64,000 bases of DNA from Candidatus Stahliibacteriota bacterium (GTDB lineage Bacteria > Hydrothermota > Tepidihabitantia > SM23-42), in contig JAUWCU010000003.1 of assembly GCA_030609135.1 (NCBI GenBank), positions 55 to 64,054 of the forward strand. Direction: 5' to 3'. The translations under genes were made by a program, and so were the position numbers. Position 1 is the first letter of the stretch. Every line of letters begins with the position of its first letter. The notes beneath the pieces are model-generated. The model was given only the letters and a program-made list of their open reading frames with translations, had not been told where the DNA came from and ran no database searches. Positions 32,579-36,373 of this stretch are shown piece by piece.

Positions 32579-32890
32579 ATGGATGGTTACTTAAAAGAAC
32601 ATCCGATTTTAGAATTCAAACGCGGCAAAAAAATTAAGTTCTTTTTCGAAGACCGGGAAATCGAGGGCTATGAAGGACTTCCTATAGCCGCCGCGTTACA
32701 TGCAGCCGGTATTAAGGTGCTCAGTTTCTCAGAAAGGTATAATCGACCCCGAGGGTTCTTTTGTGCAGTTGGCAAATGCTCTTCTTGTTTAATGGAGGTT
32801 GATGGTCATTCCAATGTAATGGTTTGCATGGAATTACTAAAACCAGGTATGAAAGTGCGTCGGCAAAAAGGAAAAAGTCAGAAACAATGA
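32579..32890 (+). CDS. (2Fe-2S)-binding protein, HcnA / sarcosine-oxidase-alpha N-terminal-like
   Basis: 103 aa; ..RPRGFFCAVGKCSSCLMEVDGHSNVMVC.. Confidence 0.75.
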   Translation: MDGYLKEHPILEFKRGKKIKFFFEDREIEGYEGLPIAAALHAAGIKVLSFSERYNRPRGFFCAVGKCSSCLMEVDGHSNVMVCMELLKPGMKVRRQKGKSQKQ

Positions 32891-34026
32891 ATTCAAGCGC
32901 CAAGAACCAAGACCCAAGACCCAAAAATAACATTCAAAACTTCTCATCTTCAGAATTTCCTAACTTCGATATTTGTATTATCGGCGGCGGTCCTGCAGGT
33001 CTTGAAGCCGGGATCATTGCACGTAGGCTCGGAGCCAAGGTTATGATAATCGATGATAACCCAGTGCTCGGTGGACAATTAATCAAGCAGACGCACAAGT
33101 TTTTCGGCTCTAAAGCGCATTATTGCGGTGTAAGAGGCGTTGATATAGCAGGTATTCTCAGCAAAGAGATTAAGGATTTAGGTTTTGACGTTCTCCACAA
33201 TGCAACTGTAGTTGGGTATTATGATGATGATATCATCGGTGTGCTGCAACATGATAAATTGTTGTCAGTAAAGGCAAGGGCGTACATTTTTGCAACCGGG
33301 GCTAGTGAAAACATGCTCGCCTTTGACAACGCAGATTTACCTGGTGTTTATGGCGCTGGTGCTGTACAGACCATGATGAATGTCTATGGTGTTGTGCCCG
33401 GGAAAAGAGCGGTGGTAATCGGGTCTGGTAATATCGGCTTGATTGTTCCTTATCAGTTGCTGCAGGCTGGTGTTGAGGTGGCGGCAATTATAGAAATCAT
33501 GGATAAAGTCGGTGGTTATTATGTTCACGCGGCAAAGCTAAAAAGAGCCGGTGTACCGATTATCCTCAAACACACAATTATCCAAGCCCAGGGTAGAGAT
33601 TGTGTTGAAGCTGCACTTATCAGCAAGGTCGACGGAAAATATAAGTGCCTGCCCGGTACAGAAAAAACAATTGAGTGCGACATGATTCTGATTGCGATCG
33701 GTCTTTCGCCACTCTGCGAATTGCTCTACCAGGCAGGATGTCGTATAGATTATATCCCTGAGCTTGGCGGTCATGTACCCCTTCACAATGAAGACATGAT
33801 GACTACCCAGAAAAACATCTTTGTGTGCGGTGATCTGGCGTGTATTGAGGAAGCGTCTACGGCTATGCTCGAAGGCAAGATTGCCGGAGCCAAGGCGCAT
33901 GAAGTTATATACGGCGAGACCAAGCAGGGTAAAGAGATTGCCCAACAGGCAAAAAGAGAACTCGCGGTTATTCGGTCTTCTCCATTTGAACAAAGGATTA
34001 CTTACGGTCTGAATAAGTTGAAGTAG
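32887..34026 (+). CDS. NAD(P)/FAD-dependent pyridine-nucleotide-disulfide-type oxidoreductase (HcnB / opine-oxidase subunit A-like)
   Basis: Start moved to ATG 32887 (ATGA overlap with the upstream stop). IIGGGPAGLEAG and VIGSGNIGL dinucleotide folds; C-terminal ..VCGDLACIEEA.. Confidence 0.75.
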   Translation: MNSSAKNQDPRPKNNIQNFSSSEFPNFDICIIGGGPAGLEAGIIARRLGAKVMIIDDNPVLGGQLIKQTHKFFGSKAHYCGVRGVDIAGILSKEIKDLGFDVLHNATVVGYYDDDIIGVLQHDKLLSVKARAYIFATGASENMLAFDNADLPGVYGAGAVQTMMNVYGVVPGKRAVVIGSGNIGLIVPYQLLQAGVEVAAIIEIMDKVGGYYVHAAKLKRAGVPIILKHTIIQAQGRDCVEAALISKVDGKYKCLPGTEKTIECDMILIAIGLSPLCELLYQAGCRIDYIPELGGHVPLHNEDMMTTQKNIFVCGDLACIEEASTAMLEGKIAGAKAHEVIYGETKQGKEIAQQAKRELAVIRSSPFEQRITYGLNKLK

Positions 34027-34473
34027 CTGCAAATACGTCTTCAACAATTCAACAGGACTATTGTCATTACGAGTGTAGTCGAGAACCCTCAACATGATTA
34101 TTGTTCCTCTCACCTTGTTCGAGACAGGCGAGCGAAGTTGAGAACTTCCGCAATATGGGTGATGGCCCTAGATAAAAATGTCATTGCGAAGGCGTAGCCT
34201 GAAGCAATCTCACCTCCTTTTGTCAATCAAGCGCGTGAGGGCATAGTATTTGTAGTGGTCGAGTTTACTCGACAAACATCCCTGCACGCTACGGTATTTG
34301 TGCAGAGCAAGCTCTGCCACTACATATGTTGGGGTAGGTCTTTACACGAGCGGGACTCTGTTTCATGTCATTGCGAATCCGCCGCGTCATATAGCGGACA
34401 AAGTCCCGCAATGCAAGGATCCTCGATTTTCATTTATTAGAAATATATAGTACGGAAAATCGGGATAGTCTCA
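34027..34473. repeat. Repeat cluster, including 74-nt REPIN-like copy 1 (34251..34324)
   Basis: TGTAGTGGtcgagtttactcgaCAAACATCCCtgcacgctacggtatttgtgcaGAGCAAGCTCTGCCACTACA. Also a 38-nt unit tctcaccttgttcgagacaggcgagcgaagtYgagaac (34108..34145 = 36681..36718) and gtcattgcgaa..gaagcaatctc units. 34213..34324 is repeated at 36953..37062. Confidence 0.85.
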
Positions 34474-34501
34474 TTGACAGCCCAATTTTTCTCTATATAA
34501 T
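34474..34501 (+). promoter_or_regulatory. promoter of the RnfB-like/agmatinase operon
   Basis: TTGACA-N16-TATAAT, 8 nt before ATG 34510. Confidence 0.6.
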
Positions 34502-34509
34502 ACCATGTT

Positions 34510-35526
34510 ATGAATGCAATAGAAGTCATAAAATCAGTTGCTGGTCTTGGCGGTCTCAGTTTGATTTTTGGTATTGTTCTGGCTGTTGCATTTAAGAAAC
34601 TCGCGGTCAAAGTTAGTGAACAAGAGCAGAAACTGAGAGATGCTTTGCCAGGTACAAATTGCGGTGCCTGTGGTTTCCCGGGTTGTGATGCCTATGCCCA
34701 TGCCTTAGCTGAAAATACTGGTGAGGTAGCGTCAAACCTCTGCACCGTCGGTGGTGCTGAAACAATTAGGAAAATCGGCGAAATCCTGGGCATTGAGGTT
34801 GAGGCAGCAGAACCAATGATGTGTGTATTACGATGCCGGGGCGGTAGGGAAAACGCAGTTGAAAAGTTTGAGTATATAGGGCCAGGTGATTGCCGAAGCA
34901 ATTACATCCTCTTGGGCGGTAATAAAGCATGTGAGTGGGGGTGTTTGGGCGGTGGTCACTGTGAGACTGTTTGTCCATTTGACGCCATTACAATGGGGCC
35001 GAATCGTCTACCTATTATTGATCCACACAAATGCACGGCATGTGGTATTTGCGTAAAAGAGTGTCCGCGTCAGGTACTTGAGTTACTACCCCGCGTTCAA
35101 TTGATATACTTGGCCTGTAAAACTCTGGATAAAGGTAAAGTGGTCAAAAATGTCTGCAAGGTTGGTTGTATTGGTTGTACCCTCTGTGTTAAGTCCTGTC
35201 CTTATGAAGGAGCAATACAAATGGATGGTAATCTTCCCAAGATGGACTATACCAAGTGTATATCATGTGGTATTTGTTATAATAAATGCCCTACCAAATC
35301 ATTTGTTGACCGTGCTCCAGCGCGACCTTATGCGATTATTTCTTCAAAGTGCGATGGCTGTGGAGAATGCGTAAAAGTATGTTTGTTCAAGGCAATTGAG
35401 GGAAAACCAGGAAAACGCCACACCGTGATAAAAGATAAGTGCATAGGCTGTGGCAGGTGTTTTGAAGTTTGTCCGATAAAAGTTATTACCATGGCTGGCG
35501 CCTTGGGATATGTAGAAACAGCATAG
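34510..35526 (+). CDS. RnfB-like membrane-anchored polyferredoxin
   Basis: N-terminal TM helix; RnfB-type cluster LPGTNCGACGFPGCDAYA; at least four CxxCxxCxxxCP ferredoxin motifs. No other rnf genes are nearby. Confidence 0.7.
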   Translation: MNAIEVIKSVAGLGGLSLIFGIVLAVAFKKLAVKVSEQEQKLRDALPGTNCGACGFPGCDAYAHALAENTGEVASNLCTVGGAETIRKIGEILGIEVEAAEPMMCVLRCRGGRENAVEKFEYIGPGDCRSNYILLGGNKACEWGCLGGGHCETVCPFDAITMGPNRLPIIDPHKCTACGICVKECPRQVLELLPRVQLIYLACKTLDKGKVVKNVCKVGCIGCTLCVKSCPYEGAIQMDGNLPKMDYTKCISCGICYNKCPTKSFVDRAPARPYAIISSKCDGCGECVKVCLFKAIEGKPGKRHTVIKDKCIGCGRCFEVCPIKVITMAGALGYVETA

Positions 35527-35557
35527 TGTTAGAACATCAGGCTATCAGAGGATCAGG

Positions 35558-36373
35558 ATGAAGTTATATTATGCCAACTCCACATTGGACAATGCTCAAG
35601 TTATCATCCTTGGTCTTGGTTATGATAGAACTTCATCATTTATCCCTGGTTCGCGATTTGGACCCGAGTTTATAAGATTATGTTCTAATAATATTGAGGA
35701 ATATTCACCATATCAAGATAAGAGTCTTTGTAATGTGAACATATGTGATTGCGGGGAGGTAGAGTTTGACACAAAAGATTGGGTCTTAAAAGCGCGTACC
35801 GCAGTCAAAGAATACATAGATGAACAGAAATATCTCATTGCACTCGGCGGAGAGCATACGATTACCTTACCGATTACTCAAGTCCTAAAAGAGAAATATG
35901 AAAATTTTTCACTGGTTCATTTTGATGCTCACTGTGATCTACGCGATGAGTATCTTGAGCAGAAAATCTGCCACGCTACAGTGATGCGCCGGGTGAGCGA
36001 TATTATTGGGCTTGATAATCTATACCAGTTTGGTATTCGTTCAGGAACCCAGGAGGAATTTAGTTTTGGCAAGAACCTGTACAAATTCGATCTTTTTAAA
36101 CCTTTATCTTCAGTAATAAACAATATCAAAGAACCTATTTATCTATCAATAGATGTGGATGTTTTGGACCCGGGAGTATTACCGGCAGTTTCCACACCTG
36201 AACCAGGCGGGGTTTCATATCAGGAGTTTATTAAAGCACTGCTATTATTTAAAGACAAGAAAATACTTGGAGCTGATATTGTTGAATACAACCCTTTCGC
36301 TGCCTCACCATATGCGTCAGGCTCCACTGTCGCTGAGATACTGCGGGAGCTCATTCTGGTCGGAACTCCCTGA
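35558..36373 (+). CDS. speB: agmatinase (arginase/ureohydrolase family)
   Basis: GGEHTIT, HFDAHCDLRD, SIDVDVLDPG, EYNP. Confidence 0.85.
   Translation: MKLYYANSTLDNAQVIILGLGYDRTSSFIPGSRFGPEFIRLCSNNIEEYSPYQDKSLCNVNICDCGEVEFDTKDWVLKARTAVKEYIDEQKYLIALGGEHTITLPITQVLKEKYENFSLVHFDAHCDLRDEYLEQKICHATVMRRVSDIIGLDNLYQFGIRSGTQEEFSFGKNLYKFDLFKPLSSVINNIKEPIYLSIDVDVLDPGVLPAVSTPEPGGVSYQEFIKALLLFKDKKILGADIVEYNPFAASPYASGSTVAEILRELILVGTP

Follow-up and report, generated by a model that had tools for sequence, protein, structure and literature searches.

An rnfB gene outside the rnf operon, next to a PdhA-type flavoprotein pair and an agmatinase gene in WOR-3 bacteria

We analysed a four-gene locus in a 64-kb stretch of DNA from a Candidatus Stahliibacteriota bacterium (hereafter, the window). 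The four open reading frames (ORFs), which have exactly the coordinates given in an earlier note on this DNA, encode a small [2Fe-2S] protein (gene A), a flavoprotein (gene B), a polyferredoxin of the RnfB family (gene C, rnfB) and an agmatinase (gene D, speB) (Table 1). That note had described A and B as an HcnA/HcnB-like pair without its dehydrogenase subunit and C as an RnfB-like protein without Rnf partners, and had proposed a stand-alone module carrying electrons from NAD(P)H to a membrane polyferredoxin. The stop codon of A and the start codon of B overlap at 32887-32890 (caATGAat), which makes the two genes translationally coupled. The repeat cluster of about 480 nt that had been noted before rnfB measures 483 nt; the promoter-like site of its own that had been ascribed to rnfB is also there, and speB starts 31 nt past the end of rnfB. 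Upstream of A-B, the window contains genes for a tRNA, a bactofilin, a metallo-β-lactamase (MBL)-fold protein and PurQ. The best matches for all genes tested were proteins from metagenome-assembled genomes (MAGs) of WOR-3 and Stahlbacteria, and homologous stretches fetched from relatives are labelled L001 and so on below.

Table 1 Features of the locus and its flanks, in window positions
Feature	Positions	Strand	Description
Gene A	32579..32890	+	103-aa [2Fe-2S] protein; Pfam Fer2_4, 7.7e-26; corresponds to gamma subunit / PdhA N-terminal domain
Gene B	32887..34026	+	379-aa flavoprotein from ATG at 32887; Pyr_redox_2, 4.1e-33; PdhA / HcnB / SoxA-N core
Spacer between B and rnfB	34027..34509	.	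483 nt, dispersed hairpin repeats
Sigma-70 consensus TTGACA-16-TATAAT	34474..34501	+	12/12 match; 8 nt before rnfB ATG
rnfB (gene C)	34510..35526	+	338 aa; PF04060 FeS domain and many Fer4 domains
speB (gene D), agmatinase	35558..36373	+	271 aa; TIGR01230 240.9 versus cut-off 174.3
purQ	31183..31950	+	TIGR01737 215.5 versus 177.8; context gene upstream of A-B
M1 aminopeptidase, type IX secretion system (T9SS)-type tail	37166..39016	+	Peptidase_M1 1.4e-25; context gene downstream of agmatinase
Perfect consensus promoter of M1 aminopeptidase gene	37121..37148		12/12 sigma-70 match

Gene C scored above both NCBIfam cut-offs for RnfB (NF005503, 265.1 versus 252; TIGR01944, 149.5 versus 68.7). It aligned end to end with RnfB of Acetobacterium woodii (9eri_B; 1.6e-71, residues 4-328 on 5-327), and 7zc6_B was matched too. 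According to PMC11889175, the A. woodii protein combines a membrane helix, a mobile B8 domain whose one cluster passes electrons to that of RnfA/E, and another seven clusters. Residues 4-100 of C align with the first transmembrane helix (TM1) and the B8 region of 9eri_B, PF04060 falls on residues 46-78, and operon-encoded RnfBs share the B8-domain cysteines at positions 51, 54, 59 and 78. Altogether, 32 of the 33 cysteines of C are conserved in 33 operon-encoded RnfBs, enough for eight [4Fe-4S] clusters; beyond B8, 28 cysteines form six CxxCxxCxxxC-type motifs and one split set, likewise conserved in the 33 proteins. The earlier count of at least five Fe-S motifs was therefore on the low side. 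As judged from its sequence, C is a full-length, orthodox eight-cluster RnfB of the A. woodii type.

Rnf genes occur in 135 of 181 WOR-3 genomes according to a published survey (PMC12542636). None of rnfC, rnfD, rnfG, rnfE and rnfA was found among the scanned ORFs of the window, where the ORFs at 8435-10987, 20438-21124, 22827-25101 and 25805-27640 were placed by synteny only. Homologues of C fell into two groups. Members of the first are at least 70% identical to C and share the gene context of the window, and members of the second, which are 55-64% identical and come from WOR-3 and neighbouring lineages, are encoded by the last gene of canonical rnfCDGEAB operons (L008, L009, L010, L017, L111, L113 and others). 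By scanning species-representative genomes for RnfD and looking up RnfC homologues, we found rnfCDGEA operons that end after rnfA in a Stahlbacteria MAG (L015), WOR-3 RS_16_8 (L020), chromosome CP070795 (L092) and WOR-3 SM23_42 (L093); the RnfD scan covered 600 candidate stretches, which are a sample and no census. A step in RnfC identity parallels the one in RnfB: the subclade lies at or above 63% for RnfC and 70% for RnfB, and the canonical type at or below 61% and 64%, respectively.

RnfCs of the B-less-operon type and window-type RnfBs coexist in the same genomes. Three complete WOR-3 chromosomes of 2,368,485, 2,688,392 and 2,297,784 bp each encode one RnfC of the group found in the B-less operons and one window-type RnfB, a link taken from cluster membership lists, and the accessions of the two proteins are separated by 566, 154 and 1527 numbers. 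In one MAG, this type of RnfC and the window-type RnfB are encoded on different contigs. No rnf operon of CP070834, the genome of L001, was found among the RnfC matches or their cluster members. Given rnfCDGEA operons that lack the B gene, and RnfC and RnfB encoded far apart in the same genomes, the apparent orphan C is most simply explained as a detached B subunit. In a neighbour-joining (NJ) tree, the detached RnfBs form one clade nested among the operon-encoded RnfBs of the WOR-3 type; this clade has no long stem, and its branch is no longer than neighbouring ones. The simplest reading of these results is that rnfB moved out of the operon in this WOR-3 subclade and still serves the Rnf complex. 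The description of C as a protein without Rnf partners is not supported, as its homologues end rnfCDGEAB operons in sister lineages and the subclade has rnfCDGEA operons without B.

Other rnf loci also vary. A WOR-3-like MAG (L012, 7649-17928) has purQ directly before rnfCDGEA, and its rnfB, about 4 kb farther downstream, is encoded on the other strand before tatC and mgtE; this arrangement represents a second route, independent of the first, by which rnfB became detached. Another rnf operon without rnfB (L061) contains a 1036-aa ORF between rnfD and rnfG (11017-14127). RnfG is 298-339 aa long in WOR-3-type operons (L008 5408-6427; L009 5896-6795; L092 11288-12184) versus 188 aa in L010, and the two separate BLAST segments that the long form gives against the short one suggest a duplicated FMN_bind region.

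The A-B pair belongs to a different redox family. Gene A encodes the motif C62-x4-C67-x2-C70-x12-C83, all four cysteines of which are invariant in 12 aligned WOR-3 loci and in Thermovirga lienii; the gamma-type [2Fe-2S] motif of the opine, D-hydroxyproline and hydrogen cyanide (HCN) enzymes is CX4CX2CX11-12C (PMC4575208). A aligns with residues 8-88 of Pyrococcus horikoshii PH1363, and B with the same protein from residue 109 onward. B contains an FAD-type motif, GGGPAG...DD (G33-G34-G35-P36-A37-G38, D56-D57), and a second-site motif, GSGNIG...E, neither of which varies among 29 homologues from WOR-3; any assignment of a nucleotide to the second site is putative. Its best NCBIfam match was the N-terminal half of SoxA (positions 169-495, 2.8e-46), far below the cut-off, and its PDB matches were 2gag_A, 1vrq_A and 1y56_A. 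An AlphaFold2 model of B based on 29 close homologues was poor (mean pLDDT 64.6) and was not used to choose between families; a Foldseek search of the PDB with this model pointed only to a generic two-dinucleotide-binding flavoprotein fold, at template-modelling (TM) scores of 0.35-0.44. Across the subclade, A and B are 70-96% identical at the amino-acid level with all motifs intact and no frameshifts, so the pair is under selection, and the ATGA overlap between the two genes is kept in L002, L003 and L004.

An exhaustive, profile-free search gave no more than 486 representative clusters with E values under 1e-30. Among 84 nearer relatives (50%-cluster representatives), B-like proteins were fused to Fer2_4 in 30 cases, to Fer2_BFD in 27 and to a 4Fe-4S dicluster domain in 23; a single relative, P0273, has all these domains together with a D-amino-acid oxidase (DAO) domain. 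T. lienii, a cultured member of the Synergistota, encodes a B homologue that is 48% identical and lies in a five-gene operon in the order Fer2_4 protein, flavoprotein, 4Fe-4S protein, BFD/SO_alpha_A3 protein and DAO enzyme, followed by 2-oxoacid:ferredoxin oxidoreductase. This order is the same as pdhA-pdhF-pdhX-pdhB, the gene order of the alpha-beta-gamma-delta proline dehydrogenase of Thermococcus profundus (PMC4364671). The equivalent P. horikoshii subunit is described as ATP-containing in the title of reference 30 of PMC4575208. On these family features, we identify A plus B as a PdhA-type alpha subunit split over two genes, that is, the predicted electron-transfer half of an enzyme of the PdhA, HcnAB and opine dehydrogenase family, a more exact placement than the earlier comparison with HcnA/HcnB, which was correct as far as it went. 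The archaeal alpha subunit has NADH dehydrogenase activity, which we did not use as evidence.

As the earlier note had stated for the locus, no DAO-family subunit was found among the scanned window ORFs, where Thi4 gave a weak Rossmann match only, and the same is true of about 10 kb around the pair in WOR-3 relatives (six counted, with L001-L004 and L094 named). The gamma, delta and beta subunits of T. lienii, used as tblastn queries, had no match in the window; Fer2_BFD had none in B, and no BFD gene was found in the window. L001 (4983-6788, minus strand) encodes an 85-aa BFD/SO_alpha_A3 protein that is 46% identical to T. lienii delta, 3 kb from A-B, and this gene heads a lipB-lipA (lipoate synthesis) gene string. 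The supplement of the WOR-3 genome paper, which scores Rnf genes by presence or absence, does not list K00302, K00303, sarcosine, speB or proline dehydrogenase.

We compared gene order around A-B, rnfB and speB in the relatives. In every locus of the detached-RnfB group with enough downstream sequence to be informative, speB follows rnfB, in most cases with a spacer of -4 to 187 nt. In L104, a 235-aa gene on the opposite strand separates rnfB from the agmatinase gene, and L123 shows the same over the extent of its contig. The gene after rnfB in L001 was called only as a 59-aa arginase-family fragment. A-B lies directly upstream of rnfB in 13 of the 19 informative loci (the window and 12 further), and in L095 the stop codon of B overlaps the start codon of rnfB as ATGA. 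Six loci (L100, L101, L103, L104, L106 and L110) contain rnfB-speB without the pair and have unrelated, variable genes upstream of rnfB, including those for an M6 peptidase, a nucleoside phosphorylase and a methyltransferase. The pair without rnfB behind it is found in CP070795 (L002) and SM23_42 (L094), where other genes follow. Because each unit occurs without the other, we regard them as independent modules. In the NJ tree, loci in which they are adjacent fall on several branches within the detached clade, so the adjacency may be ancestral. The earlier note had asked whether the four genes co-occur in relatives and whether an rnf operon lies elsewhere: the order A-B-rnfB-speB recurs in 12 further loci, with the ATGA overlap in L095, so the idea that these genes never co-occur fails, and rnf operons do lie elsewhere, in the relatives.

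The agmatinase itself is ordinary in sequence. Its LGGEHT, DAHxDLR, IDxD and GADIVEYNP motifs are invariant in 23 orthologues, and the ureohydrolase metal-site motifs are present. A connection between the other genes and agmatine metabolism had been called speculation; the synteny turned out to be strong, and no mechanistic basis for it emerged. We therefore treat the rnfB-speB link as inherited gene order or co-expression, with no shared chemistry seen. In the more distant loci L124 (1909-5319), L140 (1021-4437) and L126 (1395-2943), a soluble polyferredoxin of 237-243 aa precedes the agmatinase; it corresponds to RnfB residues 101-338 and has neither the membrane helix nor the B8 domain.

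Synteny extends beyond the four genes. The purQ gene precedes A-B everywhere (L001-L004, L094, L096, L097, L099, L105, L108 and L112). We rejected PurQ as a functional partner of A-B, as there was no mechanistic or fusion evidence, and the position of purQ directly before rnfC in L012 points to a long-standing neighbourhood and not to a common function. Downstream of the agmatinase gene, L003, L004, L104, L106, L110, L124 and L140 have ORFs of 615-619 aa, with a Pfam Peptidase_M1 annotation that covers L003 and L004 only. The window M1 gene is matched at the DNA level by L095, L096, L099 and L003, and the block from bactofilin to M1 peptidase is syntenic as a whole in relatives. Genes for pst/phoU, a two-component system, a porin, recA-recX and thi4-MFS, which follow A-B in SM23_42 (L094) and CP070795 (L002), lie upstream and inverted in the window (5646-21124), and this inversion places the rnfB-speB-M1 block at a rearrangement junction.

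The spacer between B and rnfB contains repeats of families D1-D3, D7 and D8, numbered D4, D7 and D13 in a second repeat listing. L095 is the closest relative in which this region is available, at about 93% protein identity, and its spacer measures -4 nt; in other relatives the range is 50-550 nt. The absence of a spacer in L095 and the dispersed repeats that make up the one in the window mark the repeat cluster as a recent, lineage-specific insertion. The separate rnfB promoter is thus a trait of the window lineage and not of the gene set. By our own estimate, a 12/12 sigma-70 match is expected about 0.002 times in the spacer stretch. Only 8 nt separate TATAAT from the rnfB start codon, a distance into which no Shine-Dalgarno sequence fits, and this implies that the rnfB transcript would be leaderless or nearly so. 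The second perfect match, before the M1 gene (Table 1), lies within 5.3 kb of the first, and each stands just before a gene start.

Dispersed short repeats of several families fill intergenic regions of the window at 2450-2840, 8368-8438, 29630-29810, 31951-32578, 34027-34509, 36374-37165 and 39017-39415. Many are hairpins with a stem of 5-7 bp and an A/T loop, such as GGTCGAG-TTTA-CTCGAC and GCGGGA-TTTA-TCCCGC. An imperfect palindrome of about 90 nt occurs at 34241-34330, 36387-36476 and 36979-37069 (folding z -2.1 to -3.8), and copies are present in relatives (L095 2845-2934; L096 8914-9030). An Rfam scan of the window found one tRNA only, and the repeats match no described RNA family. Elsewhere in the window, an overlapping pair of toxin-antitoxin type, comprising a HepT-like RNase and a Polbeta/MNT nucleotidyltransferase, is encoded at 61619-62453 (minus strand), and at 43569-44784 a 204-nt unit is repeated in tandem 5-6 times, with 76-81% identity, within SBBP beta-propeller repeat genes.

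Taken together, these data lead us to favour, as the probable explanation, two separate and ordinary modules side by side: a detached but genuine RnfB and a split PdhA-type alpha pair. The window-type RnfB would assemble into the Rnf complex, with its N-terminal helix anchoring the protein in the membrane, its B8 domain, the first Fe-S domain, handing electrons to the RnfA/E cluster and seven further [4Fe-4S] clusters wiring it to ferredoxin. The rnfB gene would have left its operon in this WOR-3 subclade, leaving rnfCDGEA behind, and would since have travelled with speB and usually the M1 aminopeptidase gene, through synteny or co-expression. In related organisms, a unit of the A-B type makes up the electron-transfer half of a complex of alpha, gamma, delta and beta subunits, the last of which, a DAO-family protein, carries out the oxidation of an amino acid or an amine. 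For the WOR-3 pair, we see two readings: the gamma, delta and beta genes may be scattered in the genome like the rnf genes, in which case a distant beta subunit would exist, or A-B may act alone, reducing an acceptor with NAD(P)H through a 2Fe-2S carrier of its own. All four proteins are of known families, so the locus is a gene-order variant of known systems. Its unusual part is that order, in which a detached rnfB is fixed to speB and often stands behind an alpha-only Pdh/Hcn-type pair.

Several observations weigh against this explanation. No rnf operon was seen for the genome of the window itself, which the analysis covered over the 64 kb of the window. Among the WOR-3 loci fetched, no gamma, delta or beta homologue was found except the delta of L001. 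The linkage of rnfB to speB is more constant than chance synteny usually is. A-B and rnfB are adjacent in most informative loci, on several branches of the detached clade in the NJ tree, and B and rnfB overlap in L095 as in a single operon. Finally, the gene after B in operons of the T. lienii type also encodes a 4Fe-4S protein.

Some of these observations would be expected if A-B were a dedicated redox partner of RnfB, in which B exchanges hydride with NAD(P)(H) and A carries single electrons. The RnfB polyferredoxin would then replace the missing gamma and delta Fe-S subunits, and Rnf would gain a ferredoxin-independent entry or exit. We consider this unlikely, although it has more than the recurrent gene order, the L095 overlap and the 4Fe-4S gene of the T. 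lienii operon in its favour: the pair, with its identity of at least 70%, is about as deep as the detached RnfB clade, and both occur in the same WOR-3 subclade. The adjacency is absent from six rnfB loci and two pair loci in which both gene sets are kept, the spacer ranges from -4 to 550 nt and the window has a separate consensus promoter. RnfB retains every canonical subunit feature and shows no accelerated branch, and because the whole block from bactofilin to M1 is syntenic, retention is not specific to A-B-rnfB. We also looked at the Fer4-type gamma subunit of T. lienii as a specific relative of RnfB and rejected it, as the two share only generic CxxCxxCxxxCP cluster motifs. The stand-alone NAD(P)H-to-polyferredoxin module of the earlier note is thus conceivable but unnecessary.

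A more ambitious form of this idea, in which A-B docks on the detached RnfB and gives Rnf of one WOR-3 subclade an extra port, seems rather improbable to us. Electrons from NAD(P)H or another dehydrogenase would then bypass soluble ferredoxin, and a possible outcome would be an ion-gradient-coupled NADPH/NADH transhydrogenase. We think it more improbable still that C is an RnfB paralogue outside Rnf, a free-standing membrane polyferredoxin for some other enzyme. The gene is unlinked to other rnf genes, and the soluble 237-aa polyferredoxin before the agmatinase in L124 and L140 demonstrates that this fold can have a use outside Rnf. However, the rnfCDGEA operons of the subclade would then miss their ferredoxin-docking subunit, C retains both the helix and the B8 domain, which is described as reaching to the RnfA/E cluster (PMC11889175), and the cluster lists show one window-type RnfB in each of the three complete chromosomes. 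That A-B is a functionless remnant of a lost dehydrogenase operon, as the absence of partner genes from the locus in all WOR-3 relatives examined could suggest, is hardly credible in view of its 70-96% identity, invariant cofactor motifs and cysteines, retained ATGA overlap in L002-L004 and lack of frameshifts.

For the annotation of WOR-3 genomes, two separate modules would mean that a lone rnfB should be counted as part of Rnf and not as a separate system. Multi-subunit redox operons are fragmented in WOR-3, and a subunit missing at a locus is therefore weak evidence of genome-wide absence. The widely conserved WOR-3 genes annotated as sarcosine oxidase alpha would represent only the electron-transfer half of a Pdh/Hcn-type enzyme. 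Were A-B to couple to RnfB after all, which on present evidence is a minority possibility, this would be a new way to feed the ion-pumping Rnf complex.

Comparison with known systems places each protein in its family. Sarcosine oxidase SoxA (2GAG, 1VRQ) gave the best NCBIfam and PDB sequence matches, with A corresponding to positions 13-95 and B to positions 169-495, but the score is 157.8 versus a cut-off of 1164, and the window pair, unlike SoxA, lacks the SO_alpha_A3 domain and the folate-binding GCV_T half and is without genes for SoxB, SoxG and SoxD. In HcnA/HcnB, OdhC/OdhA and LhpE/LhpF (alpha4 beta4 gamma4; PMC4575208), a small 2Fe-2S gamma subunit resembles A and an ADP-binding flavoprotein alpha subunit resembles B. 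B differs from these alpha subunits in that it lacks the second [2Fe-2S] motif (C-X-C-X15-20-C-X4-C), there being no CxC in B, and the DAO-type beta gene that is adjacent in the Hcn, Odh and Lhp systems is not found next to A-B. The alpha subunit of archaeal L-proline dehydrogenase (T. profundus PdhA; PH1363, 1Y56 chain A) is 493 aa long, compared with 103 + 379 aa for A and B, and has GxGxxG and a second nucleotide site, as does B. Unlike PdhA and PH1363, the window alpha subunit is split into two genes; PH1363, unlike A, lacks the four [2Fe-2S] cysteines in the alignment, and A-B, unlike the archaeal enzymes, lacks neighbouring genes for beta (DAO), gamma (Fer4) and delta (BFD) subunits.

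Agmatinase SpeB (TIGR01230) is matched at the equivalog level and in its metal-site motifs, so that the protein is ordinary and only its fixed place after rnfB is unusual. C is equal in length to, and collinear over residues 4-328 with, RnfB of A. woodii (9ERI chain B) and Clostridium tetanomorphum (7ZC6 chain B), and is likewise predicted to have a hydrophobic helix at its N terminus, followed by a PF04060 domain and seven clusters of the ferredoxin type. Unlike its counterparts in these two organisms, the window rnfB lies outside an rnf operon and is flanked by the flavoprotein/2Fe-2S pair on one side and by agmatinase on the other.

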